Assembly (NCBI GenBank): GCA_040755005.1
Contig: JBFMBV010000002.1
Coordinates: 13,761-77,760 of the forward strand
DNA: 64,000 bases
Origin: Bacillota bacterium
Lineage (GTDB): Bacteria > Bacillota > Sulfobacillia > JBFMBV01
Reading direction: 5' to 3'
The notes under the pieces: model-generated
Seen by the model: the letters and a program-made list of their open reading frames with translations, nothing else
What the model was told of the DNA's origin: nothing
Databases searched by the model: none
Shown here: positions 23,119-48,924 of the stretch, one piece after another
Numbering within the stretch: the stretch's first letter is position 1
How the letters are laid out: every line of letters begins with the position of its first letter
Program-made: the position numbers and the translations under genes

Positions 23119-24934
23119 ATGCAGGGTCGGAGATTCGACGACCGCTTCGCCGACGAAGTGCGCCAACGCGCTGACATCCTGGAAATCATCGGCGAGCATG
23201 TCTCCCTGCGCAGGACCGGCAAGAACCACGTGGGGCTTTGTCCCTTCCACACGGAGGACACCCCATCATTCTCCGTTTCCGCTGAACGGGGGATGTATTA
23301 TTGTTTCGGGTGCGGCGCGGGCGGGAACGTGTTCACGTTCCTCATGCGCAAGGAGGGCCTGAGCTTCGCCGAAGCCCTCCGCCGCCTGGCCGATCGCTAC
23401 GGGCTGGCGATGCCCTCCGAGGAGCTGACCCCCGCCCAGAAGCGCCGCCTGGCGGCCTTGGACGCCCTGGAGGAAGCGGCCAAGTTCTACGCGGCCTGCC
23501 TCGCCTCCCCGCAGGGGGCCAACGTGAGGGCCTACCTGGAAGGCCGCGGCGTGACCGCCGAGGTGGCGGGCAAGTTCCGTTTGGGCTATGCGCCCCCGGG
23601 CTGGGACAATCTGCTCACGCACCTGAAGGGCAAAGGCTTCCGCGCCGACCTGGCCGTCTACGCGGGTCTGGCCAGCCAGGGCGAGCAGAGCCCCTACGAC
23701 CGCTTCCGCGACCGTCTGATGTTCAGCATCTGCGACGCTGGCGGGCGGGTGACGGGGTTCGGCGCCCGGGTGCTGGCAGGCGCGGACGGGCCCAAGTACC
23801 TCAACTCCCCCGAGAGTGACGTGTTCAGCAAAGGCCGGGGGCTGTACGCTCTCCATTTGGCCAGGGGCGCCGCCCGGGAACAGGACAGGCTCATCGTCGT
23901 CGAAGGGTACATGGACGTCATCGCCATGCACCGGGCGGGCTTCACCGGGACCGTGGCGCCGCTAGGGACGGCCCTCACGCAGCACCAAGCCGCGCTGATC
24001 GGCCGCCACACCAAGGAAGTCATCATCGCCTTCGACGCTGATGCCGCCGGGCAGGCCGCCACCCTGCGGGGCCTCGAGACGTTGAGCGCCGAGGGGCTGA
24101 AGGTGCGCGTGGCCCAACTGCCCGCGGGCAAGGACCCCGATGAGGCGCTGAAGACCGCGGGCCGCGACGCCCTGGCCAAGGCCATCGACCAGGCCCTGCC
24201 CCTGCCAGAGTACCGCTTCAAACTGGCGGTCGCGGCGCATGATACCAGCACTGTGGACGGGAAGGTGCGGGCCGCCCAGGACATCGCCCCGGTGCTCGCC
24301 GCCTTGGACAACGCGCTGGAGCTCAACGCTTATGTGGACAGCTTCGCGCGCCGCCTGGGCGTCGAACCGGCCTCCCTGTACGGCGAAGTCAAGCGGCTGG
24401 GGCGCGCCAGGGACAGGCAACAGCTGGATAGTCCCAGGGAAACGCGAAATAATACAGTAGACAGAAAGGCTCAGCCAGGCAGGAAACCAGTCAAGGAGCT
24501 CCGCCAGCGCGCCGAAGAGGAACTGCTGCGGCTGATGCTAGCCCACCCATCGGCCCGTAGGATGGTAGAGGGGACGCTGGCGCCCAAGGACTTCTCCATC
24601 CCGGCCCACGCCGAGGTGGCGGCGGCCCTGCTGGAGACAGCCGTGGCGGAACCTGCTGACCTGCTCAACCGTATTAGTGAGGACAGCGCCGCTGTGGCAG
24701 CCAGTGTGTTCATGGCCCCGGCGGTAGTCAGCGATGCTGACGTAGGGCGCGTGGTGGCGGACTGTATCGAGGCCATCCGCAAGGATGCCCTAAGGACGAG
24801 GGCCAGGCAACTGGAGGAGACGATCAGGTCACAGGAAGCCAGCGGGAGGCTCGACCCGGCCCTGCTCCAGGAATTAAACCAGCTTGTGCGCCAGAGTAAG
24901 GTTGGGGCCGGCGAGAAAGGGGACACCGTTTCCG

Positions 24935-24948
<14 letters not shown>
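23119..24948 (+). CDS. dnaG: DNA primase
   Basis: CHC2 zinc finger ([13 protein letters not shown]...[11 protein letters not shown]), Toprim region ([10 protein letters not shown]...AFDADAAG), C-terminal DnaB-binding domain. Confidence 0.9.
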
Positions 24949-26038
<1,090 letters not shown>

Positions 26039-27157: not shown

Positions 27158-27232
27158 TCCTCGATAGCTCAATGGTGGAGCACTCGGCTGTTAACCGAGG
27201 GGTTGCAGGTTCGAGTCCTGCTCGAGGAGCCA
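27158..27232 (+). tRNA. tRNA-Asn (anticodon GUU), CCA encoded
   Basis: Cloverleaf readable: acceptor TCCTCGA/TCGAGGA, D-arm GCTCAATGGTGGAGC, anticodon loop CTGTTAA (GTT), T-arm GCAGGTTCGAGTCCTGC, discriminator G + CCA. Confidence 0.85.
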
Positions 27233-27237
27233 AGCAC

Positions 27238-27265
27238 AAACCGCCGGTGACGGCGGTTTTTGTGT
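27238..27265 (+). terminator. Rho-independent terminator downstream of tRNA-Asn
   Basis: AAACCGCCG-GTGA-CGGCGGTTT followed by TTGTGTTT. Confidence 0.6.
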
Positions 27266-27392: not shown

Positions 27393-28275
27393 ATGCTGAT
27401 GAGGCAGAAGGCAATCCTAGGCCTCCTCATCCAGGTCGGCAGGTCGCTTTCGCCGACCGCCTTTGTGAAGCTCGTCTTCCTCCTCCGTTGCGAGACATCC
27501 TTAAGGGAGAACCCGTGCTTCTACGACTTCGTACCGTACGACTATGGACCTTTTTCGTTTACACTTTTTTGCGGACTTGAATGGCCTCCGACGGAACGGG
27601 TATGTGACGGGGGAAGACGAGTCGATCGCGCTCTGCACCTGCGTGCTGGAGTCGGCCAAGAAGCTCGCTCAGGAGCTCCCGGCAGGTACGCGTGCCGCCA
27701 TTGCAGACATTGTAAGTCGTTACGGGGCCATGAGTATTGATGACCTCGTCCAATACGTCGATGAAAGGTATCCGTGGTTCACCATCAACAGCAAGCTGTT
27801 GGGACGGAACGCTGCAGCTACCCGGCACGGCAATCGGGCCCGCCCAGCCGTCTATACGACTGGATACGAAGGGTGTTCAGTGGAGAGCTTCTTTGGCGGC
27901 ATCCTTGAACGAGGCATTCACGTGATAGCTGATGTGCGGGCAAACCCATGGTCCCGCAAGTACGGGTTTTCTGGCCCACGGCTCGCTGAGTTCTGCCAGA
28001 GGCTCGGTCTTGAATACCAGCCCACGCCTAGCCTGGGAATACCCAGTTCCGCTCGGAGCGAGCTCAATGGCTTTGCATCGTACCAGCAGCTCCTCAGCCA
28101 ATACGAGCAGACCTTACTCCCGAGACGGGTGACGGAGGTCGAGGCTCTCTCCCAGCTCATGCGGCGGACACCGACCGTGCTTGTCTGCGTGGAGAAAGAT
28201 GTCCGTTTGTGCCACCGAAGCAGATTGGCGGAGGCCATAAAGAGCGGTACCGAGCTGGAGGTGGTCCACATATGA
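27393..28275 (+). pseudogene. Panacea-domain (DUF4065) - DUF488 fusion gene split by a frameshift in a T6 run (or a sequencing error)
   Basis: Frame A 27393-~27570 encodes a Panacea-like N-terminus (KLVFLLRCETS..FYDFVPYDYGPFSFTLF). Frame B (ORF 27544-28275) continues in a protein-like way (ADLNGLRRNGYV...) and ends with a full DUF488 domain (TTGYEGCSVESFF..IADVRANPWSRKYGF..CHRSRLAEAI..VHI). Removing one T from TTTTTT at 27565-27570 joins them. Confidence 0.55.
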
Positions 28276-28574
28276 CGGGCACACCTGGGCAAGAGCGCCT
28301 CAGGGTTCTGATTACCGTGAAGACTTACCCTATCCCTTCGGCCAAGTACGACGAGCTAGTCTGCACAGCGGGAGTAACGGAGAACGGCGATTTTGTCCGT
28401 CTCTATCCGGTCAACTTCCGTGATCTAGCTTTCCGCAGTCAATATAAGAAACCCAGTGGATCGAGGTACTTGCCCAGGGGCATCGGGGGCGTGACGTACG
28501 CAAGGAGAGCTACCCCTTTAACGGAAGCCGCCGGTGCATCGCGCACGGCGGTACTGCCGTCGGCACCCAGTTGA
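28272..28574 (+). CDS. Hypothetical ORF; only the N-terminal ~50 aa look protein-like. Possibly a gene remnant truncated at the island junction.
   Basis: ATGA overlap with the preceding stop. Sequence becomes low-complexity and GC-biased towards its end, just before the degenerate tRNA-like repeat. Confidence 0.25.
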   Translation: MTGTPGQERLRVLITVKTYPIPSAKYDELVCTAGVTENGDFVRLYPVNFRDLAFRSQYKKPSGSRYLPRGIGGVTYARRATPLTEAAGASRTAVLPSAPS

Positions 28575-28597
28575 AGTGGCCCCCGAGGGATTGTAGT

Positions 28598-28655
28598 TTG
28601 AGTCCCACTTGAGGAGCATCTACGGAACCGCCGGCAACGGCGGTTTTTGCCTGAC
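28598..28655 (+). repeat. Degenerate direct repeat of the tRNA-Asn 3' end plus its terminator (att-like junction scar)
   Basis: GGGATTGTAGTTTGAGTCCCACTTGAGGAGCATCTACGGAACCGCCGGCAACGGCGGTTTTTGCC is about 80% identical to 27200-27262 (GGGGTTGCAGGTTCGAGTCCTGCTCGAGGAGCCAAGCACAAACCGCCGGTGACGGCGGTTTTTGTG). Confidence 0.6.
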
Positions 28656-28775: not shown

Positions 28776-31700
28776 ATGACACAGGACGGCAACAACCTCG
28801 CTCCCGGCGATGTGGTCTCGGGCTTGGAGCCCTCTGAGCTCGTCGAGATCCAGCGCATTGTTCCCTTCGGCGGCAAGACGCTGGTCGAAGGCGTCGGGCT
28901 CCAGTCCCGCCGCCTGTTGAAGCGTCCCCTCACCGCGGAGGAACTGGCCGCTCTCGTCAGAGTTCGCGGCCAGCAACGCACGTTTGACGGCGATGCCCGG
29001 CTTTTCCTCCTTGGCGCCGAGGCTGAACGCATCCGTATCGCCTACCAGTTCGACCCCCTCTTCGCCGTTAACTCCAGCATCGTCGACCCCCTCCCTCACC
29101 AGGTTGAAGCAGTCTATCGATACCTCCTCCCCTTGCCGAGGATCCGGTTCCTGCTCGCCGATGACACCGGTGCCGGCAAGACGATCATGACCGGGCTACT
29201 AATCAAAGAACTGCTCTTCCGGGGAGTGCTCCAGAAGGTACTGATCATCACACCGGGGGGCCTGACGAAGCAGTGGAAGGAAGAGGAGTTGCAGGAGCGG
29301 TTTGGGCTCTACGCGCGGCTAGTGAACCGCGCGTCCTTTGATGCCGAGCCGGGCCAATTCGCCCGTTATGAAGAGGGCATCTTCGTCACGTCCATCGATT
29401 TTCTCGGACGGAATGAGGGGTGCCTCAAGGCCGCCTCTGAAACCCAGTGGGACCTCGTGGTCGTCGACGAGGCCCATAAGCTGTCGGCCTATGAGTACGG
29501 GACCAAGTTGGAAGAGAGCGAACGGTACAAGGCGGTGAAGGCGCTCGCCGGCAAGAGCGATCATCTGCTCTTCCTCACCGCGACGCCGCACCGGGGAAGA
29601 AAGGACACGTTCCGCCGGCTGCTCCTCCTTCTCGACCCGGACCTGTTCCAAAAGGACGAACATGTCACCGATCGAGTCCGCGAGCAAGCAGTGCCCTACG
29701 GAACCTCCGAGGCAGAGGACTTTGAGGATGAACGCCCGATTAGTAGGGCGCGCAACCGCTTCTTCCTTCGTCGCCTGAAGGAGGAGATGGTAGACTGGGA
29801 CAACCACGCCCTCTTCAAGGATCGTCACACGAAGACCACCGGCTACGATCTCACCCCGGAGGAGAAGACCCTGTATGACCAGGTGACAAGCTACGTCCGC
29901 TCGCAGCGCAAGCAAGCCCAGGCGCAGAAGAACCGGAACGTCGAGCTGACCCTCATGGTCATGCAGCGCCGTCTGGCCAGCAGCCTCTACGCGATTACGC
30001 GGACGTTGGAGAACCGCCTACAGGTCCTCAACGAGGTCCTTGCCATCCTGAGGGACCCGAGCCGCTCCGAGGCGGACAAAAGGAAACTGCTCAGGGGAAC
30101 TCCAGACCCCAACGAACCGCGCAGCATCACGGAATACTACGAGCTCAGCGAGGAGGAACGCGAGCGGGTCGACCGGCGGATCTCCCGTCAAGTCCTGACG
30201 AGTAACCCGGATAAGGTTCAGGAAGAACGGGATGAGGTCGAACGGCTGTTCCATCTGGCTGACAGTCTTAAGCACCATGAGGAAGCGAAGTTCGCCCAAC
30301 TCCTTGCCGTGCTCGACTCCTCTGACGTGATCCGCGCGGAGGACGAGAAGCTCCTGATCTTCACCGAGCATCGCGACACGATGGACAGCCTCGCCAAGCG
30401 GCTCGAGGAGAAGGGGTACACGGTCGCCACGATTCATGGCGGCATGGACGTGGACTCCCGTAAAGAGGCCCAACGACAGTTCAGGGCACATGCCAAGATC
30501 ATGGTTGCTACCGATGCCGCGGGCGAAGGTATCAACCTTCAGTTCTGCCGACACCTGATCAACTGGGACATCCCGTGGAACCCGAACAGGCTCGAACAGC
30601 GCATGGGGCGCATCCACCGGTACGGTCAGACCGACGATGTCTGGGTCTACAATCTGGTTGCCCAGAACACCCGGGAGGGCTCGGTCCTCCAGAAGGTCCT
30701 CTCCAAGATGGACGTGATGCGTGAGCAGATGGGGACCGACCGGGTGTACGATGTGATTGACGAGTGGCTGGAGGATGTGCCACTGCTCCGGCTGATCGAG
30801 AGTGCGATTGACGACGCAGACGAATCTGCGAGTGCCAGAGAGACCGACGCCGCCCTCTCGGCGGCATCCAACGAGAGGGCCGCTAGGCTCATAGCCCTCC
30901 AGAAGAAGACCTCCCTCGCCTCACGCCTGAGTCTTAGATCCGCGCGTGAGCTGCGAGATGCGTCAGACGAGCGCCGGCTTCAGCCACTGTTCGTCGAGCG
31001 GTTCTTCGAGCGCGCGTGGACGGCTTGCGGGGGCACAATCCGCCAGGACGACCACTTTCCGGTATGGCACATCGGTTCCACGCCGACCGCCTTGCTGGAA
31101 CTCGCCCAGGAGCGGCGGCAGCCTCTGTCAGATGACTTCGACACGCCCTTCGTCTTCGACAAGCAGCTCGTCAGCGTTGCCAGCAAGGTGCGTACCCCCG
31201 AGCGTACGAAGCTGATAGGCCCCGGACACCCGCTCTTCGACACCTTGATCGAGTGGGCGATCCGGGAGGCGCGACAGGCCTTCGCCAAAGGGGCGACCCT
31301 CGTGGACCCTAACATTGCCACACCCCAGCGGCTTTGGCTAGTCCGCTCGACCATCGAGGACGGACGTCGGCAATACCGGCAGGATCGTCGCAAGCTCCCT
31401 GCCCATGAGCGCCTGGCCGTGATCGTACAAGACCACATGGGCCTTCGCACGACCTCGCCTTCATACATGCTCAACTGCGTAGCTCCAGATGCCCCCCTAC
31501 CGGTTCCCGACGTGGCAGCGAGGTCTGCGGAGGAGATCCAGGCCTGGGCCCATGAACAGATCACCGAGCGGCAGCTCGACCAGGTCAAGACCCTCCGTGA
31601 GGAGGAGTGCAGTCTCCGCCAGGAGTATCTCAACACTGCCTTCACTGGTCTCATCCTTCAGCTGCAGGGGGAGTTGAACGACCTGCAGCAGGCGGAGCTC

Positions 31701-32315
31701 TACGGAGACGACAATGCGGAGGAGCGTGAGCGGCTCCGGCAACGAGTCAAGGATCTGAAGGTCCGACGGGCCGAACGGCTGCAAGAGCTGGAGCTCATGC
31801 TGAAGCTGACCGCCAACCTCCCTGATCTCCTGACGGAGGCCGTGGTCGCCCCTGTCCCAGTGGCTATGGTGGAGAGCGACGCAGAGGCACCGTCCAGGGG
31901 CTTCCCGATGCGACGCGACGACGAGGTCGAGGCCATTGCCATGGACGTGGCCATGCGCTACGAGCGCGGACGCGGGTGGACACCTGTAGATGTCAGCCGG
32001 GACGGAGATCACTATGACGTCCGGTCGGAAGGGCCTAGTGGAGAGAAGCGGTTCATCGAGGTCAAGGGCCGCGCCCAGTCGGGCGCCATCGTCCTGACCG
32101 GTCCCGAGGTGGACAAGCTTCGCCAGCTCGGCGAGCGGGCCTGGTTGTACGTCGTTACCTTCTGCAAAGGCGAGCGTCCCAGGCTACGCATCATCCAGGA
32201 CCCCATCGCCAATCTCAGCCCAGAGATGCTCTATCGGCAGATCCAGTACATCGTCACAGAAGACGATTGGGCACAGAAGTGCGAGGAAGTATCGGAAGGA
32301 GGCCAACCCCTATGA
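28776..32315 (+). CDS. SNF2/DEAH-family helicase with C-terminal DUF3883-like domain (defence-associated)
   Basis: Walker A LADDTGAGKT, DEAH box (VVVDEAHKL), LLFLTATPHRG, helicase-C motifs (ATDAAGEGINLQ...WNPNRLEQRMGRIHRYGQ). C-terminal DUF3883-type segment (DVSRDGDHYDVRS...RFIEVKGRAQSG). Start chosen at ATG 28776; the track ORF begins at 28647. Confidence 0.8.
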   Translation: MTQDGNNLAPGDVVSGLEPSELVEIQRIVPFGGKTLVEGVGLQSRRLLKRPLTAEELAALVRVRGQQRTFDGDARLFLLGAEAERIRIAYQFDPLFAVNSSIVDPLPHQVEAVYRYLLPLPRIRFLLADDTGAGKTIMTGLLIKELLFRGVLQKVLIITPGGLTKQWKEEELQERFGLYARLVNRASFDAEPGQFARYEEGIFVTSIDFLGRNEGCLKAASETQWDLVVVDEAHKLSAYEYGTKLEESERYKAVKALAGKSDHLLFLTATPHRGRKDTFRRLLLLLDPDLFQKDEHVTDRVREQAVPYGTSEAEDFEDERPISRARNRFFLRRLKEEMVDWDNHALFKDRHTKTTGYDLTPEEKTLYDQVTSYVRSQRKQAQAQKNRNVELTLMVMQRRLASSLYAITRTLENRLQVLNEVLAILRDPSRSEADKRKLLRGTPDPNEPRSITEYYELSEEERERVDRRISRQVLTSNPDKVQEERDEVERLFHLADSLKHHEEAKFAQLLAVLDSSDVIRAEDEKLLIFTEHRDTMDSLAKRLEEKGYTVATIHGGMDVDSRKEAQRQFRAHAKIMVATDAAGEGINLQFCRHLINWDIPWNPNRLEQRMGRIHRYGQTDDVWVYNLVAQNTREGSVLQKVLSKMDVMREQMGTDRVYDVIDEWLEDVPLLRLIESAIDDADESASARETDAALSAASNERAARLIALQKKTSLASRLSLRSARELRDASDERRLQPLFVERFFERAWTACGGTIRQDDHFPVWHIGSTPTALLELAQERRQPLSDDFDTPFVFDKQLVSVASKVRTPERTKLIGPGHPLFDTLIEWAIREARQAFAKGATLVDPNIATPQRLWLVRSTIEDGRRQYRQDRRKLPAHERLAVIVQDHMGLRTTSPSYMLNCVAPDAPLPVPDVAARSAEEIQAWAHEQITERQLDQVKTLREEECSLRQEYLNTAFTGLILQLQGELNDLQQAELYGDDNAEERERLRQRVKDLKVRRAERLQELELMLKLTANLPDLLTEAVVAPVPVAMVESDAEAPSRGFPMRRDDEVEAIAMDVAMRYERGRGWTPVDVSRDGDHYDVRSEGPSGEKRFIEVKGRAQSGAIVLTGPEVDKLRQLGERAWLYVVTFCKGERPRLRIIQDPIANLSPEMLYRQIQYIVTEDDWAQKCEEVSEGGQPL

Positions 32316-34237
32316 AGATCAAGTCGGTACGCATTCGTAACTTCCGCTCCGTGAGAGGGCAGCTCGTTGAGCTTGGCGACTACACATGCTTTGTGGGAGC
32401 TAATGGTTCAGGGAAGTCTAACGTGCTTCATGCTCTTAACGTTTTCTTCGGAACAGACACCCCTGGCCTCGACACCCACGAACTAGAAGAGGAGGATTTT
32501 CACAACAAGAACACAGGAGAGCCTGTAGAGATAACAGTTACGTTTTGTGACCTCTCGCCGCAAGCCAAAGAGGAACTAAAGCACTATGTGCGCCACGACC
32601 AACTGGTAGTCTCAGCTGAAGCGGGTTTTGACGCTGATACCCGCAAGGCTGCGGTCAAGCAGTATGGACGCAGGATGGTGATCAGGGAGTTTGCGCGCTT
32701 CTTTGAGGCTGAGAAGAAGACAGGCACGAAGGTCTCGGAACTCAAGGAGATATATGCGGACATACAAAAGAGATACTCACAACTGCCTGTTACAGGAACA
32801 AGGGAAGCCATGATCACGGCGCTTCGGTCATATGAGGAGAGTCACCAGGAGGAGTGTGAGGAGCTTCCGAGCAGCGACCAGTTCTATGGAGTAGCCAAAG
32901 GAACAAACCACCTCGAGAAGTACATCCAATGGGTCTATCTCCCAGCAGTCAAAGACGCATCGAGCGAACAGGCTGAAGCCAAAACCACGGCCCTCGGAAA
33001 GCTCTTGGCACGCACCGTTCGATCCAAGGTCAACTTCAAGGAGTCGATTGACGCTATCCGTGGAGAAACACGAGAAAAGTACGAAAAGCTTCTGGTCGAT
33101 AGTCAGGAGGAGCTGGCAGAAGTATCTCAAGCTCTAAGAGATCGCTTTGTGCTGTGGGCACACCAGGACGCGACTCTCCGGCTGGAATGGCAACAGGATC
33201 CTGAGAAGGCAGTACGTGTGGACGAACCATTCGCTCAAGCCATTCTCGGTGAGGCAGGCTTTGAGGGGGAACTCACCCGTTTCGGACACGGACTTCAACG
33301 GTCCTTTCTCCTGGCGCTTCTGCAAGAACTCTCCGGTAGTAACATCGAGGCGGGTCCGCGGCTGATTCTCGCGTGTGAGGAACCTGAGCTTTACCAGCAC
33401 CCCCCTCAGGCAAGGCACCTATACAACGTGCTGCTGAGACTGAGCGAACAGAACTCTCAGATTCTTATTGCGACCCATAGCCCCTACTTCGTGTCCGGTG
33501 AAGGCTTTGAGAGTGTACGAATGGTTCGCAAGTCTAACGGGGCGTCTTCGATCACGAGGGCGACACATGACGAAGTATCGAAGAGAATCGCGAAGGTTCG
33601 AGGAGAGCAGCCTATAAGGGCCAGCGGCCAACTGGCCAAGATCCATCAGGCGCTCCAGCCGGGACTTAGCGAGATGTTCTTCGCCTCCCGAGTCATATTT
33701 GTTGAAGGTCTTGAAGACATTGCCTATATAACAACATACTTACATCTCCTAGGCTTGTGGGACGAGTACAGGAGGCTCGGTTGCCACTTGATCTCGACTG
33801 GTGGGAAGAACGAAGTGCTTCTGTCCTTGGCGGCTGTGAAGTGCCTCCAGATCCCGGCTTTCGTTGTCTTCGATTCAGACGATGACAAACCGGACAAGAA
33901 CGGCAGCAAGCAGAAACATCGAAAGGACAACTCTGCAATCCTAAGTCTATGTGACGTTGACAGTCTGCAAGTGTCTCCGTCCGATACATTCTGGGGAGAC
34001 TCCGCGGTCATGTGGTCCTCTGATATTGGGCAGGTGGTTGCGCAGGAGATTGGAGCCGAGGACTGGGACAGGTATCGCTCTGAGGCTGACGCGAAGTATG
34101 GGCACGTAGGGAACCTCCGCAAGAACATGCTACACATCGCATCGAGCCTGCAAATAGCTTGGGAAGCTGGGAAAGAGTCGGACTCGCTAAGGAAGGTCTG
34201 CAACAAGATCATGGAGTTTGCTCAGAAGAATGGATAG
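32312..34237 (+). CDS. OLD-family ATP-dependent nuclease (N-terminal ABC-type ATPase + C-terminal Toprim)
   Basis: Walker A GANGSGKSN. Toprim motifs (IFVEGLEDIAYI ... FVVFDSDDD). Noticeably AT-richer than its neighbours. ATG 32312 overlaps the helicase stop; RBS GGAAGGAGG. Confidence 0.8.
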   Translation: MKIKSVRIRNFRSVRGQLVELGDYTCFVGANGSGKSNVLHALNVFFGTDTPGLDTHELEEEDFHNKNTGEPVEITVTFCDLSPQAKEELKHYVRHDQLVVSAEAGFDADTRKAAVKQYGRRMVIREFARFFEAEKKTGTKVSELKEIYADIQKRYSQLPVTGTREAMITALRSYEESHQEECEELPSSDQFYGVAKGTNHLEKYIQWVYLPAVKDASSEQAEAKTTALGKLLARTVRSKVNFKESIDAIRGETREKYEKLLVDSQEELAEVSQALRDRFVLWAHQDATLRLEWQQDPEKAVRVDEPFAQAILGEAGFEGELTRFGHGLQRSFLLALLQELSGSNIEAGPRLILACEEPELYQHPPQARHLYNVLLRLSEQNSQILIATHSPYFVSGEGFESVRMVRKSNGASSITRATHDEVSKRIAKVRGEQPIRASGQLAKIHQALQPGLSEMFFASRVIFVEGLEDIAYITTYLHLLGLWDEYRRLGCHLISTGGKNEVLLSLAAVKCLQIPAFVVFDSDDDKPDKNGSKQKHRKDNSAILSLCDVDSLQVSPSDTFWGDSAVMWSSDIGQVVAQEIGAEDWDRYRSEADAKYGHVGNLRKNMLHIASSLQIAWEAGKESDSLRKVCNKIMEFAQKNG

Positions 34238-37166
34238 CAGCAGCACTATCGGTTGGTGTCCGCGTTTGATCGAGGTGGCACTCCCCATCCGTGAAATCTC
34301 GGCAGAGAGCGTGCGGGACAAATCGCTGCGGCACGGCCATATCTCCACGCTTCACCTCTGGTGGGCGCGTCGACCGCTGGCTGCGTCACGAGCGGTTGTG
34401 TTCGCGTCGCTCGTGCCCGATCCCGACGACCCGCGTTGTCCGGCCGACTTCAGGGCAGCGGTGGAGCGTCATCTCAAGACGCACGTGCCGGCGGAACTGA
34501 GATACTACCTTCGCGGCCGCCACAGTCACCGTGATGAGGACCCGTACCGGCCCTACGATGGCATGCCGGACACGCTGCGGAACCGCCTCCTCATGTTCAT
34601 CGCCAAGTGGTCGCCGGAGTCCCTGACGTTTGAGGCCGGCAAGCGGAAGAACGCGCCCGTGCCGAAAGAGCTCCTGGACGACCGCTCCCTCGTGAAATGG
34701 GAGACCTCCGATCCTGAGAACGCCCAAGGCCAGGAGATCCTCCGCATCGCCCGCCAGCTTGTGAAGGCCGCCCACAGGGGCGACGTCCCGAGGGTGCTCG
34801 ATCCCTTTGCCGGCGGCGGGGCGATTCCGCTGGAGGCCGGGAGGCTCGGCTGTCAGGCCATTGCCAACGACTACAACCCGGTCGCGTATCTCATCCTTAG
34901 GGCGACCTGCGAGTTTCCGCAGAGGTACGGTAAGCCAGGCAAGAGGACGGTGGTCGTGGAGGAGTTTGGCAAGAAGGCCGAACGCGAAATCCAGGTTCAA
35001 AACGTCCTCGTCCACGACTTCGCACAGTGGGCGAACTGGATTCTCGAGCGGGCTCGCCAGAGGATTGGGCATCTGTATCCTCCCGGCATGGACGGCAGGC
35101 CGGTTGTGGGCTACCTCTGGGCCCGCACTGCGCCGTGCTCGAACCCCACCTGCCGTGGCGAGATTCCCCTGTTACGGAGCCTTCTGGTCTGCAACAAGAA
35201 GGGGAAGCAAGTCGCGCTGACGATGGATGTGGACAGCAAGCGGAAGACGGTTCGATTCGGGATCGCGGAAGGCAACGCCATCAGGATGACTGACGGCACC
35301 ATGCAGAGTCGCGGAAACGTTTTGTGCCCGTACTGCGGACAGGTGACCCCTGTCGCCGACCTACGGACCGCTGGACGCGCGGGCCGCATGAGCGAGCAGA
35401 TGGTATGTGTCGTGGTGGAAGGAAAGGGTGGAAAGGACTACCGGGAGGTGGAGTACACAGACCTCACGGGGATTGCCTGCGCAGCGAAGATCGAGGTTGA
35501 GTGTCCCGGGGAGAGAATTCCTGAGAACCAGTGGAATGTGAAGACCTGGCTGTATGGAATGAAGACCTGGGGTTCCCTCTTCAACCCCCGCCAGCTCGTG
35601 GCCATGCAGACGTTTGTCTCCTGTCTCCACGAGGCGCTAGGAGGGATGAAGAGAGAGATCGCCGACGACGAGTACCGGAAGGCGGTTGGAGTCTGTCTGG
35701 GGCTTTGGCTGAACCGGATTGCCCAGCGAAGTTCGAATGTAGGAATTTGGGACACAACCCGAGAGACCTTTGCTCATCCCTTTGGCCGCCAGGCTATCCC
35801 TATGACGTGGGACTATCCCGAGGCGAACCCTTTTTCAGAGACAACAGGGGGTGCGGAAGGCGGACTGGACTGGATGAAGCGGGTGATCCTGCATGAGTCA
35901 GGGAATTCCCTACCTGCCTACGTGACACGCAGTGATGGCGCGGCCCTTCCCTTCAGGGAAGCATCTTGCGACTTGGTCGTCACCGATCCACCCTATTTTG
36001 ACGCCATCGCTTACGGTGACCTCTCCGATTACTTCTACGTTTGGCTCAAGCGCGGCCTTGGCGATGTCATCCCTGAGGCCCTGATCACGCCGCTCACGCC
36101 CAAGGCTGATGAGGCGACTGCACTCAAGCATCGTCATTCCGGCGACGGAGAGAAGGCGGATGCTCACTTCAAGTCAAAGTTGGCGGCGGTACTAGCGGAG
36201 GCACACCGGATCTTAAGGCCTGATGGCATCGTCTCGATCATGTTTGCACACCAGTCCACAGAGGCGTGGACGGCCCTGGTTTCGGCGATCTTCGAGGCTG
36301 GGTTGACGGTGCACGCGACGTGGCCGATTGACACGGAGCTCACTACGGCCTTGAAGGCCAGCATGTCGGCTCTGTCGTCGTCGGTAACCGTTACCTGCCG
36401 TCCGCGCGCTGTAGCAGGTGCTATATCCTCCAAGGCGGTCCGCAGTGAGATCGAGGAGGTAGTGGGCCGTTCCGTAAAGCGCTTCTGGTCCTACGGCTTT
36501 CGCGGCGCAGACCTCATCGTTGCGTGCTATGGACCCGCTGTGGGGGTCTTTGGGAAATACGAGCGAGTGGAGAAGGCAGATGGCACCCCTGTCGGCATCC
36601 CCGAACTCCTGGTGCTTGCCAAGCAGGCCGCCCGTGACGCGATCGCCGGGGATTTCCGCGGAGACAACTTCTCAACCCTCTACTACGTCTGGGCGAACCT
36701 CTACGGGGCGGCGGAGCAGGCTTGGGATGACGCCCGGCTGGTCGTGCAGATCGGAGGAGACGAGGACAACGCCATGGAGGTTGCCCGCGGGCATGGGATC
36801 TTTGTGGTGGACGGTCCGAAATGCCGCCTTGCGCTCCTAGAGGACCGCGCCAATCGCCGAGGACTTGGCATGGATCAGAACCCGCCACACATTGACGCGC
36901 TACATCGCAGCATGCTCCTCTGGAAGAAGGAAAAGCGTAAGGATCTAGTCGAGTATCTCCGTGAGCGCGACCTCTTGGAGGATGGCCCGTTCTGGAAGCT
37001 GGCGCAGGCCCTGTTCGAGGTCCTTCCCCGCGATCTGGAGGACTGGAAGCTGGTCAGCGCTTTGCTCGGCGAGCGCCAGACTTTGCGTACGGAGGGCAAG
37101 CGTAGCGCGTACAGGGATGAGCAACAGGAGCTGTCCTTCGACGAGGGAGGCGGTGAGCGAACATGA
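34230..37166 (+). CDS. DUF1156-type DNA methyltransferase (N6-adenine/N4-cytosine class, DPPY motif)
   Basis: DUF1156-like N-terminus (RLIEVALPIREISAESVRDKSLRHGHISTLHLWWARRP). SAM motif I VLDPFAGGGAIPLEA. Catalytic motif IV DLVVTDPPY. ATG 34230 overlaps the OLD stop (ATGGATAG). Confidence 0.75.
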   Translation: MDSSSTIGWCPRLIEVALPIREISAESVRDKSLRHGHISTLHLWWARRPLAASRAVVFASLVPDPDDPRCPADFRAAVERHLKTHVPAELRYYLRGRHSHRDEDPYRPYDGMPDTLRNRLLMFIAKWSPESLTFEAGKRKNAPVPKELLDDRSLVKWETSDPENAQGQEILRIARQLVKAAHRGDVPRVLDPFAGGGAIPLEAGRLGCQAIANDYNPVAYLILRATCEFPQRYGKPGKRTVVVEEFGKKAEREIQVQNVLVHDFAQWANWILERARQRIGHLYPPGMDGRPVVGYLWARTAPCSNPTCRGEIPLLRSLLVCNKKGKQVALTMDVDSKRKTVRFGIAEGNAIRMTDGTMQSRGNVLCPYCGQVTPVADLRTAGRAGRMSEQMVCVVVEGKGGKDYREVEYTDLTGIACAAKIEVECPGERIPENQWNVKTWLYGMKTWGSLFNPRQLVAMQTFVSCLHEALGGMKREIADDEYRKAVGVCLGLWLNRIAQRSSNVGIWDTTRETFAHPFGRQAIPMTWDYPEANPFSETTGGAEGGLDWMKRVILHESGNSLPAYVTRSDGAALPFREASCDLVVTDPPYFDAIAYGDLSDYFYVWLKRGLGDVIPEALITPLTPKADEATALKHRHSGDGEKADAHFKSKLAAVLAEAHRILRPDGIVSIMFAHQSTEAWTALVSAIFEAGLTVHATWPIDTELTTALKASMSALSSSVTVTCRPRAVAGAISSKAVRSEIEEVVGRSVKRFWSYGFRGADLIVACYGPAVGVFGKYERVEKADGTPVGIPELLVLAKQAARDAIAGDFRGDNFSTLYYVWANLYGAAEQAWDDARLVVQIGGDEDNAMEVARGHGIFVVDGPKCRLALLEDRANRRGLGMDQNPPHIDALHRSMLLWKKEKRKDLVEYLRERDLLEDGPFWKLAQALFEVLPRDLEDWKLVSALLGERQTLRTEGKRSAYRDEQQELSFDEGGGERT

Positions 37167-40000
37167 GTGACACTCTCAAACCCTGGTATGCAGTTGCGAC
37201 ACCTCACGAGGACATCCGCGAAGGACGGCTCGCAGAGGCCATCTTTGCGGCAAACGTCTGGGCGGTCGTCCAGGGTACGGCGCCCGAGATCTACCTCGAC
37301 CCTGAGGAGTTTTTCCGTAAGACCTACCTCACCACCGGACTAACCACGGTGCTGAACCGCGTTGCGGGCGCGCTCCGACGCAACGGCGAGGTTGGAGACC
37401 GCATCATCAGCCTCCAGACAGCCTTCGGCGGTGGGAAGACGCACACGCTGGTGGCCCTGTGGCATCTAGCGAAGTATGCCGACCGCTTGGCGGGCTCGCC
37501 TCACTCAGATGCCCTTCGGAGAGCCATCGGCGGCCGATTCCCGGAGAAGGTGAAGGGCGTCGCCGTCTTCACCAACCAGACCTGCGATGCGACCCAGGGA
37601 CGTAGGGTCGCAGATGGCGTTCACCTGCGCACGTTGTGGGGAGAGTTAGCCTACCAGCTCGGCGGGAAGGAGCTCTACGAACGCGTCCGTGCCAATGACG
37701 AAAGCCAGCGCGTGCCTCAAGGGCTCTTCTTCGAGATCCTGCAGGCCGCCGCACCCTGCCTGATCTTGCTGGACGAGCTTGCCGACTACTGCGTTGGCGC
37801 GGCGGCAGTGCCGGTAGGTGACACGAGCCTGGCAGACCAGACCGTGTCCTTCATCCAGCAGCTGACCGAGTCCGTCCAGCAGGTGCCGGGCGTAGTGGTG
37901 GTCGCCACCCTGCCGGCGAGCAAGCACGAGGTCGCCCAAAGCGAGAAGGGCCAGGAGGCCTTCGTGACACTGGAGAAGCGCTTCCAGCGTCTCGGAGCCG
38001 ACGTCAAGCCGGTGGCGGATGTGGAAATCTACGAGGTTGTCCGGGCCCGCCTCTTCGAATCCATCGCACCGGACACTGCTCCGGACTATCCTAAGAAGGT
38101 TGCCCAGGCGTACCAGAGTATGTACGCGGCGCACTCGGGTGAGGTACCCCCCGAGGCCGCCAAAAACACGTACCGCGAGCAGCTCGAGCGCGCCTATCCG
38201 TTCCATCCCCTGCTCATCGACGCACTCTACACGCGCTGGGGCAGCCACCCCGATTTCCAACGGACGCGGGGTGTATTGCGCCTGCTGGCGAGCATCGTAG
38301 GCGACCTTTGGAAGCGCCGGCAGGGAAGCACCGAGACCCAACACCTGATTCAGCCGTGCCATGTCCGCTGGTCTGTCGATGCGCTGCAGGCTGCGCTCAC
38401 ACGACTCTGGGGACCCGCCTATCAATCCGTTGCTGCTGCCGACGTCATCGGGGAGCGGTCCAATGCCGGCATCTTCGACGAAGAACGTGGTGGCGACTAC
38501 CGAAGCGAGTCCATCGGCAAGGGGCTGGGGTCTGCGATCATCCTCGGCTCATTCGGCGGCCAAGGTGGCCGCAGCGGGTTCAGCGCTAGAGATCTGAAGC
38601 TGGCATGCTCCCGGCAGGGTTTAAACTGGAGTTACACGGACGGGGCTCTGCTGGAGCTGGAGAACCGCTGTTTCTACCTCCACACGGTGACGTCCGGAAG
38701 CCTCGGCAAGCGCTACTGGTACGGCACAAAACCGACCCTCAACAAGCTGGTCGTCCAGTACCGTCAGCAGAGCGCCAAGGAGGACTTCGGCGAGGAGATA
38801 CTGGAGGACCTCCGGGCTGATTCCCAGAAGAGCCCCATGGCTGGTGCGACGTGGCGGGTGGTCGTCAACCCCGCAGAAGACCTGCCAGAGCAGAAGTCTC
38901 TCACGCTACTGATCCTTCCGCCGTCCCTGGCCTGGGACGAGAACGGCGGGGCGAAGGACGTGGTCCAGGCACGCGTACAGGCGATCAGCACCAGGTGCGG
39001 CGGAAGGGACCGCCTGTATCGGAACACGCTCCTGTTTCTGGTTGGGACCACTCGCGGGCTCACTAAGCTGCGGCAGGCCTATCGGGAGCAGGCAGCGCTG
39101 GAAGGCGTGCGTGCGGACTACTGGGAACAGCTCGATGAGGAGCAGCGCGAGGAGCTCAAAAAACGACTGGATGCGGCGCGCAAAGCCGCCCTGGAAGCGC
39201 TGGGCCCCGCCTACACCGTTGCCCTCCGAGTGCGCGGGCAAGAAGTAGAGCCATGCGTGCTCTCGGACGCGCGGCGAACCTTCCCAGAACACCTTGGTTA
39301 TGTGTGGACGACGCTCGTCGAGGACGAGGAGTGGATTCTCCGTCGTGTTGGGTCGGTGACGCTGGAGAGCACGGGCCTCATCCCGAAGGAAGGCGGCCTT
39401 CGCTTGAAGGATGCCGTCGAGGCCTTCCTGCGCTTCACGGACAAGCCCATGGTCGCGACCAAGGAGGCGGTGACCACCGGGCTCGCCCAGGCTTGCCTGG
39501 ACGGACTGGTTGGCATCGGCAGAGGTGGAAGCCTGTCGACACTCCTGACCCGCCATTGCAGGCAGTCGGTGTCGCTCGACCCCAACGAAGACGGTGTGTG
39601 GATCATCCCTCCGTTCACACCGGAGCCGACGATGGTTCCTGGGGCTGAGGGAACCGCCGGAGTTGGGATCAATGTCGGGGGACCGGGCGGCCCAGGTGGA
39701 ACAGGCTCCAGCACGGGCAGTGGGGAAGGTGCGGCAACGACCGCCACGGGTAAGCCGGGAATCGAGGGCACGGTGCGTCGGTTCGTCGTCCGCGGCGAGG
39801 TTCCCGTGGAGAGCTGGGGTGAGCTCTTTCGCTGCTTCGTTGGGCCTGCTGCACGGATGAACCTGAAGAAGTTGCAGCTCGGCGTGCAGTTCGAGATGGT
39901 GCTCCCTGAGGAGCGGGTGCTGAGCGAGACCGATCACACGCTCAAGACGATCAAAGAGGCCGCCCGCCAGCTGGGGCTCACCTTCGAGGTGGGGGAGTAA
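37163..40000 (+). CDS. DUF499-family ATPase (BrxC/PglY-like) of a BREX-related, methylation-associated defence system
   Basis: Walker A LQTAFGGGKTHTL and Walker B LILLDELADY in a DUF499-like context; about 945 aa; ATGA overlap with the methyltransferase stop; RBS GAGGGAGG. Confidence 0.75.
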   Translation: MSDTLKPWYAVATPHEDIREGRLAEAIFAANVWAVVQGTAPEIYLDPEEFFRKTYLTTGLTTVLNRVAGALRRNGEVGDRIISLQTAFGGGKTHTLVALWHLAKYADRLAGSPHSDALRRAIGGRFPEKVKGVAVFTNQTCDATQGRRVADGVHLRTLWGELAYQLGGKELYERVRANDESQRVPQGLFFEILQAAAPCLILLDELADYCVGAAAVPVGDTSLADQTVSFIQQLTESVQQVPGVVVVATLPASKHEVAQSEKGQEAFVTLEKRFQRLGADVKPVADVEIYEVVRARLFESIAPDTAPDYPKKVAQAYQSMYAAHSGEVPPEAAKNTYREQLERAYPFHPLLIDALYTRWGSHPDFQRTRGVLRLLASIVGDLWKRRQGSTETQHLIQPCHVRWSVDALQAALTRLWGPAYQSVAAADVIGERSNAGIFDEERGGDYRSESIGKGLGSAIILGSFGGQGGRSGFSARDLKLACSRQGLNWSYTDGALLELENRCFYLHTVTSGSLGKRYWYGTKPTLNKLVVQYRQQSAKEDFGEEILEDLRADSQKSPMAGATWRVVVNPAEDLPEQKSLTLLILPPSLAWDENGGAKDVVQARVQAISTRCGGRDRLYRNTLLFLVGTTRGLTKLRQAYREQAALEGVRADYWEQLDEEQREELKKRLDAARKAALEALGPAYTVALRVRGQEVEPCVLSDARRTFPEHLGYVWTTLVEDEEWILRRVGSVTLESTGLIPKEGGLRLKDAVEAFLRFTDKPMVATKEAVTTGLAQACLDGLVGIGRGGSLSTLLTRHCRQSVSLDPNEDGVWIIPPFTPEPTMVPGAEGTAGVGINVGGPGGPGGTGSSTGSGEGAATTATGKPGIEGTVRRFVVRGEVPVESWGELFRCFVGPAARMNLKKLQLGVQFEMVLPEERVLSETDHTLKTIKEAARQLGLTFEVGE

Positions 40001-40252: not shown

Positions 40253-43200
40253 ATGGCGCAGCAAACCAGACCACGCGTCACCCAGCGGGCGTACTCACTC
40301 CGGTTGCGGGGGACCACACCGGGCGACACATCATGGCGGGATGCGCTCTGGCAGACCCATGAGGCTGTCAACAAAGGTGCCAAGGCATTCGGTGATTGGC
40401 TGCTTACTTTGCGTGGCGGCCTGGATCACACACTTGCGGCCGCCAAGACCGACGGAGAACGCCGCCAACGACGCATTCTCTTGGCTCTGTCATGGCTGTC
40501 GGTGGAATCAAAACGCGGAGCTCCGGATGACTTCATTATCAGGCACGGCGGACACGACCGAGGTAAAGCTGTAACCGGGGCACTTGAGGAAATCCTAGTG
40601 CGTCGGGGTGTGGACCAGAGTGAGCTAGCTGAGTGGAAGCGCGACTGCTCCCCGTCCTTGCACGCAGCTATTCGCGAGGATGCCGTTTGGGTGAATCGGA
40701 GCAGGGCATTTGATGGTGCGGTCAACTCAATAGGTTGCTCACTCACGCGCGAGGAGGCGTGGGACATGCTGGAACGCTTCTTCGGAAGCCGTGAAGCCTA
40801 TCTGGCTCCAGCGAAAGGGTCCGAAGATGAGTCTTCCGACACAGGGCAAGAGGAGAAAGCAAAGGACCTCGTCCAGAAGGCAGGGCAATGGCTCAGCAGC
40901 CGGTTCGGCACCGGCAAAGGAGCGGACTTCTCCCGCATGGCCGAGGTCTATCAAGAGATCGCGAGTTGGGCTGGCGCACACTCACCGGACAAGCCGGGCA
41001 CGCATGCCATTGCCAGCCTTGCGACCGCCCTCAGCGAGTTCACTCCTGCATCAGACAACCTACAGGGCGTGCTTGGTCTGATCAGCGGTCCAGGATACAA
41101 GAGCGCGACGCGCAATCTTCTCACTCAGATCGCCGCCAAGACCACCGTTACTCAACAAGATTTTACGAAACTGAACGCAACGGCGACCGCGGATAAAGGA
41201 AAATGCATGACGAACACCGGATCGAAGGGGCAACGAGCATACTCCGACACCATCCTCAAGGACGTGGAGTCGGCTTGTGGGTTCACCTACCTGCAGGACG
41301 GAGGGCCTGCTAGACACCCGGAGTTTGCAGTCATGCTTGACCACGCAGCTCGCCGCGTTTCCTTGGCCCACACGTGGATCAAGCGGGCTGAGGCGGAACG
41401 TCGCCGGTTTGAGGAAGAAGCGAAGCGTATGGCCAATGTCCCATCTCCTGCTAGGGAGTGGCTGGACTCGTTCTGCTCGGAACGTTCGGGAACGTCAGGT
41501 GCTTTGGAACCCTACCGTATCCGGCGGCGGGCGGTGGACGGGTGGAAGGAAGTGGTCACCGCATGGAGTAGGAGTTCATGTAGTACCGGCGCCGACCGGA
41601 TCGCCGCCGCTCGGGCGTTGCAGGACGCTCCAGAGATCGACAAGTTCGGCGACATTCAGCTATTCGAGGCCCTCGCTGAAGACGACGCCGTGTGCGTTTG
41701 GCACAAGGATGGCGATGCCGCGAAACCTCCCGACCTTCAGCCGCTGCTTGACTACGTTTTTGGCGCTGAAGCGGAGTTCAAGAAACGGCACTTCAAGGTG
41801 CCGGCGTACCGCCACCCCGATGCGCTTTTGCATCCGATCTTCTGCGATTTTGGGAAGTCCCGCTGGGACATCTGCTTCGACGTCCAGAAGAACGTGCAAA
41901 CGCCCTTTCCGCGGGCGCTTTGCCTGACGCTTTGGACCGGGAGCGGGATGGTAGCAGTTCGGTTGTGCTGGCAGTCCAAGAGGCTTGCATGTGATTTGGC
42001 CCTTGGAAACAACGCGAGGAATGCAGGTGCTTCCGCGGTCACCCGCGCGGACAGATTGGGACGAGCTGCCTCAAATGTGACAAAGAATGATGAGGTAAAT
42101 ATCGCGGGGCTCTTTGAACAAGCAGACTGGAATGGCCGGTTGCAGGCTCCAAGACAGCAGTTGGAAGCCATCGCCGCACGTGTGGCCAAACACGGCTGGG
42201 ATGATAAGGCCGTACAGATGCAATATCGTATCCAATGGTTGGTGTCTTTCTCTGCCAAGCTTCAACCGCAGGGCCCGTGGCTCACCTATGGAATGGCAAA
42301 TAACCTGAAGCTAGACCAGAAGAACGGTGATATTGTTATCGCGCCGCCTAACACCAAGAATGAATGGCGTGGGCTGGCTTACCCGTTCTGGCATCCTGAT
42401 AATCAGGAAGGCCGTAAGGGATTGGCCAAGCACTGCCTCTCCCGTTTGCCCGGTCTTCGCGTGCTTTCTGTCGACCTTGGTCACCGTTATGCTGCGGCGT
42501 GCGCGGTGTGGGAAGCGGTAAACACCGAGCAGATCAAGGTAGCGTGCCAGGCCGCCGGACATGATGAGCCGAAGGAGAGCGATCTCTACCTGCATCTCAA
42601 GAGAAAGGCGACGAAGCAGAAGAGGGGCGAAAACGTCGAGGTCGAGAGAACCACTATCTATCGCCGCATCGGCGCGGACACATTGCCGGACGGTACGCAG
42701 CATCCCGCCTCGTGGGCGCGCCTGGACCGCCAGTTCCTCATCAGGCTCCAGGGCGAGGAAAAGGGAGCTCGCGCGGCATTAAACGAGGAGATATGGGCGG
42801 TTCATCAACTGGAGGCTGAACTGGGCAGGACCGTGCCAATTATCGACCGACTGGTCAGATGGGGTCAGTCCGGCAAGCAAGAAACGAGACTCGATGCGCT
42901 ACGTAATCTGGGGTGGGCACCGGCAAACGAGGTTCAAGGCTCTGACGAGATGGACGAAGGCGAAGTCCGTAAGCCATCGCGCTCCGTTGACGAACTGATG
43001 TCCTCCGCCGTCCGGACCATGCGCCTCGCGCTCAAGCGCCATGGCGACCGGGCGCGAATCGCCTTTGCCATGACGGCAGCCTATAAACCTTTGCCCGGCG
43101 ACCGCAGATACTACTTCACCGAGGCGAGAGATGCTTCGGCGAACGAAGATGCTAATGCGCGGAACGGTACGCATATCGAGTCTATCCAAGATGCTCTGCT

Positions 43201-46408: not shown

Positions 46409-46424
46409 CTTGCCGGAGGCTATT

Positions 46425-46715
46425 ATGCGTCGATGCTACCTGGTTTGTTACGACATCAGAGAACCGAAACGATTGCGGCGTGTCCACAAGGTGCTTAAAG
46501 GGTACGGCGAAGCCTGGCAGTTTTCCGTCTTCTTTTGTGTGCTCAAAGACATTGACCGCGTGCGGTTGCAGACCGATCTCGAGGAGCAGATGAACCAGAA
46601 GGTAGATCAGGCCATGATTCTGGACCTTGGCCCTAACGAGAAGGAGGCCCGCGAAGCGGCCACGGTTATAGGCCAACCCCTTCCCGGCCAGGACAGCGGG
46701 ATCGTTGTTGTTTGA
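46425..46715 (+). CDS. cas2: Cas2
   Basis: About 97 aa, MRRCYLVCYDI.. N-terminus typical of Cas2; the track begins the ORF at TTG 46410. Confidence 0.85.
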   Translation: MRRCYLVCYDIREPKRLRRVHKVLKGYGEAWQFSVFFCVLKDIDRVRLQTDLEEQMNQKVDQAMILDLGPNEKEAREAATVIGQPLPGQDSGIVVV

Positions 46716-46836: not shown

Positions 46837-47033
46837 AAGGAGCGGACTCCTCGACAGCAGCCGCGAGCGCGGAGGTGGTGCAGGGGGGGCCAGGGGGTGC
46901 TCGAACCTGTTGGGTTTCCTGAGGCTATGAACAGCGCTCAGACCACCTGCGTAGGCTCATTGTCGGCAGCACTCGGTCACGCTCGCATGGCAGCCAGCAA
47001 ACGCTGTGTTAGCAAGGGTTTGCAGGGACGGCG

Positions 47034-48701: not shown

Positions 48702-48924
48702 TCAGGTTGTCGTCAGGATGATGGACTGCGTCGCCGGACCTCTCTACCGGCTGACAGGAGAACACATGCCTGCGCCCCGCACCCTTGTCTACCAAAGCCG
48801 GCTTCCCACAAGCGAGATCGAGCAGGTGCCCCTCCTGTTCTGTGTGGTGCGCATCATTTGGGCCCGGAAGCTGTAAGCTGAGAGACAGCATGAGCTAAGG
48901 GCAATCCCACATAACGCAATCCGG

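Follow-up and report, generated by a model that had tools for sequence, protein, structure and literature searches.

A decayed copy of the widespread candidate defense pair PDC-M19 next to a tRNA-Asn gene in a Bacillota genome

Analysis of a 64,000-nucleotide stretch of a Bacillota genome (from now on referred to as the window) revealed a frameshifted gene followed by the remnant of a second gene, and together they are a dead member of PDC-M19, a widespread gene pair that is already catalogued in PADLOC-DB but is only a candidate anti-phage system. The first gene, PDC-M19A, codes for a Panacea-like N-terminal domain joined to DUF488 and has probably undergone a real and recent pseudogenization within a small tRNA-Asn island remnant. 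The second gene, PDC-M19B, was overlooked in the original prediction and is the one that decides between the alternative explanations. The T6 run in M19A is merely where one of several inactivating lesions fell, and the module is non-functional in this genome even if the extra base in that run were an error, because M19B is gone. A literature search on PDC-M19 or DUF488-N3 found no paper describing either of them. The features of the locus are collected in Table 1.

Table 1 Coordinates of the PDC-M19 remnant and of neighboring features in the window.
Feature	Position	Strand	Basis and remarks
tRNA-Asn (anticodon GTT), integration landmark upstream of the module	27158..27232	+	ARAGORN
GC-rich hairpin and T run after the tRNA, terminator-like	27239..27262	+	Sequence; repeat family D13; direct-repeat arm with 28626-28649
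PDC-M19A, probable pseudogene	27393..28275	+	Panacea-like N-terminal domain, linker and DUF488 domain; ORFs, Pfam, PADLOC, homologues, AlphaFold2
N-terminal Panacea-like/DarG-C-terminal-like domain region (residues 1 to about 130)	27393..27783	+	Frameshift after codon 59; PF13274 sub-threshold and fold matches
T6 run with one extra base, giving the frameshift	27565..27570	+	Window ACACTTTTTTGCGGAC; L002/L003 ACAC-TCTACGCAGAC (TLYAD); DNA alignment
DUF488 domain (residues 164-281), frame B	27883..28236	+	Pfam PF04343, E 8e-19; invariant columns; PTP-fold phosphatase matches
PDC-M19B remnant	28272..28513	+	ATG overlaps the M19A stop (ATGA); codons 1-60 in frame; homology to about residue 82
Second frameshift, in M19B	28452..28453	+	Window AAGAAA-CC-CAG, relative AAGAAA-TAC-CAG; 1-nt loss
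Degenerate direct copy of the tRNA-Asn 3' part and terminator hairpin, att-like	28582..28649	+	Scan, alignment, D13
Intact Hma-type system, context outside the module	28776..40000	+	PADLOC and Pfam
HmaA (SNF2 helicase with NOV_C domain)	28776-32315	+	PADLOC/Pfam
OLD-family ATPase/TOPRIM, inserted in the Hma system	32267-34237	+	PADLOC/Pfam
HmaB (DUF1156 methylase)	34218-37166	+	PADLOC/Pfam
HmaC (DUF499)	37163-40000	+	PADLOC/Pfam

The M19A coding sequence is distributed over two reading frames. Frame A starts with the ATG at 27393, reads MLMRQKAILGLL...FSFTLF and leaves the coding frame at the T6 run, after which the unrepaired frame continues for 56 more out-of-frame codons up to a stop at 27738-27740. 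Frame B reads ...ADLNGLRRNGYVTGEDES...VVHI and terminates at the stop codon at 28273-28275. Deletion of one T from the run results in a 293-amino acid protein that aligns to hundreds of homologues of 292-299 amino acids over 100% of its length without gaps. The sequence and the ORF list thus confirm the frame change originally placed at this run, and agreement of this extent is well outside what chance would produce. Using a 63%-identical homologue as tblastn query, residues 1-62 are found in one frame and residues 54-293 in the next. The NCBI record of the frame B product (MEW6307568.1, 223 aa, 'MAG: DUF488 domain-containing protein [Bacillota bacterium]') is the sole member of its protein cluster and should better be marked as a pseudogene.

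In PADLOC-DB, the repaired protein corresponds to the PDC-M19A model PDLC04505, with residues 1-292 aligned to model positions 1-293 of 294 (E 3.2e-73). Another M19A model, with only 234 positions, is matched from residue 89 on, the E-value being 9e-35 compared with 3e-73 for the long model. Searching with the repaired protein returned 392 protein clusters (90% identity), one of them (P0002) being the frame B product of the window itself, and among the best 120 of these nearly all are 275-299 amino acids long, most with 100% query coverage, at 51-88% identity. A scan of one genome per species yielded 80 M19A loci distributed over at least 10 phyla, with hosts from Planctomycetota, Acidobacteriota, Rhodothermales, Chloroflexota, Myxococcota, Gemmatimonadota, Poribacteria and other groups, and residues 1-293 are encoded in a single frame in all 80 of them. 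A profile of the N-terminal 140 residues detected 2741 representatives at 50% identity, 826 of them with E<=1e-10, and fusions of 285-300 amino acids again predominate among the best matches. The original prediction regarded a Panacea-DUF488 fusion as unusual, which does not hold given these numbers and the existing PADLOC model; the database search for intact fusions that it proposed returned many intact single-gene homologues of about 293 amino acids. No homologue split at the T6 site was found among at least 80 loci or more than 390 homologous proteins.

The second component of the module is encoded directly downstream of M19A. In the locus whose M19A is 63% identical to that of the window (L001), the gene after M19A encodes 286 amino acids. 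When this protein was used as a tblastn query, residues 2-61 were located at 28272-28451, and the similarity continued up to residue 82 in another frame, to position 28513. The rest of M19B, about 200 of the 286 codons (about 600 nt, or about 70% of its length), is absent from the whole window in this search. Likewise, the PADLOC model PDLC04508 (PDC-M19B) was matched at profile positions 3-54 of 269 only (E 1.7e-23). Further, the invariant Pro54 of M19B is replaced by Ala in the window. Among relatives, M19B is located directly downstream of M19A on the same strand in 66 of the 74 loci with room for it, and no third conserved gene is common to more than about 10% of their loci, so PDC-M19 is a two-gene module. 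The window locus matches this PADLOC-DB v2 phage defense candidate end to end in M19A and at the N-terminus in M19B, with the same gene order and ATGA overlap, but differs from intact loci in that both of its genes are inactivated, A by a frameshift and B by a frameshift and a 3' deletion.

Two short contigs (L002 and L003; lineage in SRR22746135 and SRR22746111) with about 95% DNA identity to the window and an identical tRNA-Asn flank represent the nearest relatives. Both encode an intact 293-amino acid M19A without the T run. At the site of the second frameshift, the relative reads AAGAAATACCAG compared with AAGAAA-CCCAG in the window. Past about position 28513, the window loses its likeness to M19B while L002 and L003 go on with the M19B gene. 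Comparing the repaired M19A with L002 gave a dN/dS of 0.28 (dS 0.22), and of 102 positions that are highly conserved, five are altered in the repaired protein (Y59F, V103I, Y123D, A130T and L170I), where the family median is 2. Judged from the sequence, the inactivation of M19A looks recent because of this dN/dS value, the small number of deviations and the retention of the catalytic-type residues.

Three explanations were initially put forward for the interrupted frame, namely a recently inactivated gene, a phase-variable or programmed frameshift and a sequencing error in a homopolymer. The first is now favored and the second is contradicted by the data, while the third, in which the additional T arose in the homopolymer during sequencing or assembly and the cell itself carries an undamaged M19A, appears unlikely. 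The source is a metagenome-assembled genome, the M19A lesion consists of exactly one base in a T6 homopolymer, a classic place for errors, and the repaired M19A is otherwise well conserved and looks fully functional. However, the window contains 37 homopolymer runs of at least 6 nt, 23 of which are located within long coding-type ORFs, at a depth of at least 50 codons, and leave the frame unbroken. The neighboring large genes (570-1468 aa) are all uninterrupted as well, and general assembly indel noise was rejected on these two grounds. The M19A site also differs from that of the relative by substitutions (TCTAC vs TTTTTT) and not by run length alone. Most importantly, M19B, located 700-900 nt downstream, has a frameshift of its own that lies outside a long homopolymer and is accompanied by a substitution, in addition to the change of an invariant residue and the deletion of about 600 nt, and no base-calling error could produce this deletion. 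Due to these independent lesions in M19B, the operon is in decay regardless of how many Ts the run really has. Metagenome contigs were scanned twice by exact pattern for a second assembly of the window strain, and none was found.

Alternatively, frame B could be expressed as a useful stand-alone DUF488 protein carrying a partial N-terminal domain, with a length of 243 amino acids from the ATG at 27544 or of 223 amino acids as in the NCBI product. NCBI does call a CDS here, the DUF488 domain is complete and the shorter PADLOC model for M19A aligns from residue 89. Yet such a product would be without the first three helices and the β-hairpin of a compact, confidently modeled domain, the window protein is clearly of the long form according to the two PADLOC E-values, and its M19B partner is gone, all of which makes a stand-alone function quite improbable. 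A functional shift, meaning programmed +1 ribosomal frameshifting or transcriptional slippage at CUU-UUU-U or a phase-variable T-tract switch, is barely credible: CUU UUU U would permit tRNA re-pairing in the +1 frame and defense genes are sometimes phase-variable, but split homologues are absent from the loci and proteins surveyed, the relatives all being single-frame where programmed frameshifting calls for a conserved shift site and a two-frame organization, the nearest relative has TCTAC and no T run, six Ts fall short of the usual length of slippage or contingency tracts and do not make the long, length-varying tract of a phase-variable gene, neither a stop nor a rare codon follows the site, and the partner gene is destroyed. 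Recent pseudogenization of M19A, as one step in the decay of the operon, is thus the reading followed from here on.

The C-terminal part of M19A is a full DUF488 domain, as had been proposed for frame B. Pfam model PF04343 matches the repaired protein with 68.9 bits (cut-off 22.2), and PF22751 (DUF488-N3a) gave a sub-threshold match of 20.4 bits (cut-off 27). The invariant DUF488 residues C265, E267, C273, H274 and R275 are all retained, and a DVRANPxSRKYGF segment is likewise invariant in the family alignment. Fold comparison of this part identified PTP-type cysteine phosphatases, for example SsoPTP with a probability of 0.98, as well as phage DUF488 proteins. Burroughs and Aravind reportedly described, in 2023, a rhodanese-phosphatase superfamily that includes a clade of RapZ-C, DUF488 and DUF4326, and are said to have predicted activities on nucleotide sugar-phosphates and nucleic-acid ends in conflict systems for it. 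M19A resembles this superfamily through its PF04343 match, its Cys/Glu/Cys-His-Arg residues and its PTP-fold phosphatase matches. Among the DUF488 papers returned by a literature search, none gave a function.

The assignment of the N-terminal domain is less straightforward. The original prediction named it a Panacea domain; a distinct Panacea-type domain is indeed indicated by recurrent weak matches and by fold resemblance, while membership in the SocA_Panacea family PF13274 falls below the Pfam threshold. On the repaired protein, PF13274 reached 13.6 bits (E 0.13, cut-off 25.7) over residues 45-128, a region that spans the frameshift site. The same model was matched at E<=1 by 29 of the 48 family members, the lowest E-value being 1.1e-4, and otherwise only the two DUF488 models recur in most members. 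The five PF13274 matches with printed scores range from 13.6 to 15.9 bits and are all below the cut-off of 25.7. Proteins that combine the domain with a type I specificity subunit (P0379) or an AbiEi_4 domain (P0258) gave sub-threshold PF13274 matches as well, and the PADLOC search also gave a Specificity_I match.

Structural modeling of the repaired M19A with AlphaFold2 (pLDDT 89, pTM 0.78) resulted in two domains, between which about residues 131-150 form a linker modeled with low confidence. The best fold match of this model in the PDB is 7yk3_D from a DarTG complex (E 7.6e-4, probability 1.0, TMt 0.56), a chain that presumably corresponds to the DarT-binding domain at the C-terminus of DarG. 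In the viral library BFVD, a protein annotated as 'Antitoxin SocA-like Panacea domain-containing protein' was matched with a probability of 0.95 and a TMt of 0.60, but with an E-value of 0.3. At the sequence level, hmmsearch and hhalign comparisons of the N-terminal domain with one DarG were weak (E about 0.01-0.04), the latter aligning KL.FLL..ET...Y.fGPFS..L...L...G with QKIAYFATES...YGPYAPEL...L..NG. NCBIfam gave only a weak DarG hint for M19A, and sequence-profile searches of the PDB with M19A, its N-terminal domain and M19B returned noise only. We conclude that the N-terminal domain of M19A is probably a divergent relative of the Panacea/DarG C-terminal-domain fold, and it stays outside PF13274 by Pfam's rule.

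For M19B, 6226 homologues were found, and at the sequence level it had no match in Pfam, NCBIfam or the PDB. Its AlphaFold2 model (pLDDT 79, pTM 0.79) was matched by Foldseek to tandem OB-fold single-stranded DNA-binding proteins, specifically archaeal RPA, baculovirus LEF-3, Oxytricha TEBP-alpha, Teb1, RecO and SSB. The best E-value is 3.5e-6 and probabilities range from 0.95 to 1.0, while global TM-scores are low (0.2-0.34), as expected when matches extend over several domains. The invariant residues C189, C194, H197 and C236 suggest a zinc site. Intact M19B is therefore predicted, based on its model, to be a single-stranded DNA-binding protein of the RPA-like type, with tandem OB folds and a zinc motif.

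The remnant is located in an island next to a tRNA, as originally noted. The end of the tRNA-Asn(GTT) gene lies 161 nt upstream of M19A, and a degenerate att-like copy of its 3' part is found downstream of the M19B remnant. This copy (28582-28649) shares 46 of 68 positions with 27195-27262 in an ungapped alignment, including 22 of 24 within the hairpin (D13), and is the only such tRNA-3'-copy site on either strand of the window. A strict scan of the window for a second tRNA 3' end (at most 3 mismatches) found none, and the degenerate copy was recovered with a looser one. Composition is atypical too, with GC3 values of 0.58-0.78 in the island compared with 0.83-0.91 in the core genes on either side, dnaG and rpoD among them. 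With a tRNA at its border, a direct repeat of the 3' end of this tRNA and an atypical composition, the locus shows the marks of a tRNA-linked island. The tRNA and the att-like copy flank the 1.35-kb M19 remnant, as expected of the remains of an integrated element. No integrase was seen among the large ORFs at 27-49 kb.

Downstream of the remnant follows an intact Hma-type (helicase-methylase-ATPase) system. It adjoins M19 in the window, but the att-like repeat stands between the two. In three relatives (L001, L004 and L055), the M19 pair is located between HmaB-like and HmaC-like genes, and a fourth (L013) shows the same order as far as its contig extends. Dependence of M19 on Hma was nevertheless rejected, most M19 loci being without Hma genes, and we read the association of the two as shared residence in defense islands and not as dependence. 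Downstream of the remnant, the window also encodes a type V-B CRISPR-Cas locus consisting of Cas12b, a Cas4/Cas1 fusion and an array of 24 repeats.

Two characterized types of toxin-antitoxin system invite comparison with PDC-M19. PanAT systems are toxin-antitoxin pairs with Panacea/DUF4065 antitoxins (Kurata et al., PNAS 2022, PMC8832971). The M19A N-terminal domain shows recurrent PF13274 matches over positions 24-112 of 113 and has the KL..FLL...YGPFS...L..L...G motif region in common with PanAT antitoxins, and the M19 pair is also a two-gene operon with overlapping genes. In contrast to PanAT, the M19A domain stays below the Pfam gathering score and is fused to DUF488, and the M19 partner is a predicted OB-fold DNA binder instead of a recognized toxin domain. 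The PanAT study mentions neither DUF488 nor a relationship to DarG (PMC8832971). Similar to DarG, M19A joins a predicted partner-binding domain to an enzyme-type domain; however, the domain order is reversed, DUF488 takes the place of the macrodomain and the partner is no DarT ADP-ribosyltransferase. Membership in DarTG was rejected, the window pair having neither a macrodomain nor a DarT domain and resembling it in the DarG C-terminal fold only.

A tentative mechanistic picture of the intact module can be drawn from the predicted folds and the gene order. A and B would be translationally coupled, because the order A then B is conserved and the ATGA overlap is often kept in relatives. Over 59 loci, the median identity to L001 is 49% for the N-terminal domain, 57% for DUF488 and 63% for M19B, making the N-terminal domain the fastest-evolving part, which is also seen in partner-specific antitoxin domains. 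As PanA antitoxins (PMC8832971) and the C-terminal domain of DarG do with their partners, the N-terminal domain would bind M19B, possibly restraining it by mimicking single-stranded DNA. M19B itself would recognize single-stranded DNA such as phage replication intermediates, and DUF488 may be an enzyme whose substrate is a sugar-phosphate or the end of a nucleic acid. This enzymatic step could either reverse or prevent damage, as the DarG macrodomain does, or serve as the effector, and the outcome would be a toxin-antitoxin or abortive-infection-like defense. We speculate that PDC-M19 may be a DarTG-like module made of other parts, in which M19B is the harmful or sensing component, the N-terminal domain restrains it and DUF488 is the enzymatic component active in reversal or as effector. 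M19B would then have been lost first, as the toxic partner, with M19A only just broken. In the window, M19B has lost most of its length and M19A carries a single lesion; this imbalance, seen at one locus, agrees with B being harmful and therefore the first of the two to be lost.

For this genome, the finding carries little weight, the pair being a dead copy of a mobile defense module. One contribution of the analysis is the correction of the annotation, from a CDS of 223 amino acids to a pseudogene. For the wider family, the predicted RPA-like structure of M19B and the proposed link of the M19A N-terminal domain to the DarG C-terminal/Panacea fold are additions. If the DarTG-like reading is true, the window represents a natural decay series in which B was destroyed first, as expected for a toxic B. 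PDC-M19 now has a testable predicted architecture, in which M19A combines a Panacea/DarG-C-terminal-like binder with a DUF488 enzyme and M19B is an RPA-like OB-fold protein. A defense assay on an intact PDC-M19 system could yield a first phenotype for the large DUF488 family.

Base composition sets the defence stretch of the window (27300-48700) apart from the core genes beside it, with GC3 values of 0.58-0.78 compared with 0.83-0.91 in the flanks. This contrast points to horizontal acquisition of the defence stretch.

Features of the defence stretch, its flanking core genes and a related locus (window positions unless stated)
Feature	Position	Remarks
dnaG	23119-24948	Flanking core gene in GC3 comparison
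rpoD	24884-26038	Flanking core gene in GC3 comparison
Hma-type defence system	28776-40000	Intact
HmaA		SNF2 helicase with NOV_C domain
HmaB		DUF1156 methylase
HmaC		DUF499
OLD-family AAA_15/TOPRIM gene	32267-34237	Inserted between HmaA and HmaB
Cas12b (C2c1) ORF	40253-44659	1468 aa
Cas4/Cas1 fusion	44690-46408	
Cas2, probable	46398-46715	
CRISPR array	47031-48719	~24 repeats, 36 nt each, GCCACCGACATCGAAACGGATCTGATCGACGGACAC
M19A-M19B pair in relative L001	L001 952-2683	

Compared with classical Cas12b proteins, the one encoded here has ~350 additional residues. Such a long form is not new, since a 1496-aa solved protein (PDB entry 9kln) matches it almost end to end (1765 bits). The CRISPR array contains a duplicated spacer (about 48270-48306 and 48559-48595) located inside a 98%-identical block.

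In some related loci (L001, L004 and L055), the two genes of the candidate phage-defence pair PDC-M19, M19A and M19B, are flanked by HmaB-like and HmaC-like genes, and L013 has this order as far as its contig extends. The island of L001 also carries a DarT-DarG pair. The M19A N-terminal domain is also found as the C-terminal portion of a type I restriction specificity subunit and, in a 508-aa protein with DUF488, after an AbiEi_4 domain.

In the window, the public annotation of frameshifted M19A is a 223-aa 'DUF488 domain-containing protein' (NCBI MEW6307568.1, 27604-28275), called from an internal start and carrying no pseudogene flag. The M19B remnant appears to be without public annotation. 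The 3' part of tRNA-Asn together with its terminator hairpin (27195-27262) is repeated directly in degenerate form at 28582-28649 (46/68 identities), the hairpin portion being identical at 22/24 positions. The two copies enclose the 1.35-kb M19 remnant in an arrangement resembling att sites; no integrase was seen among the large ORFs at 27-49 kb of the window.

Alignment with L002, the nearest relative, showed only three differences in the M19B remnant, all disruptive or non-synonymous. In M19A, the 5' two-thirds (27393-28000) differ from L002 by about 10%, and the stretch from the 3' end of the gene into M19B (28000-28513) by about 1%. Such mosaic divergence suggests recent recombination.
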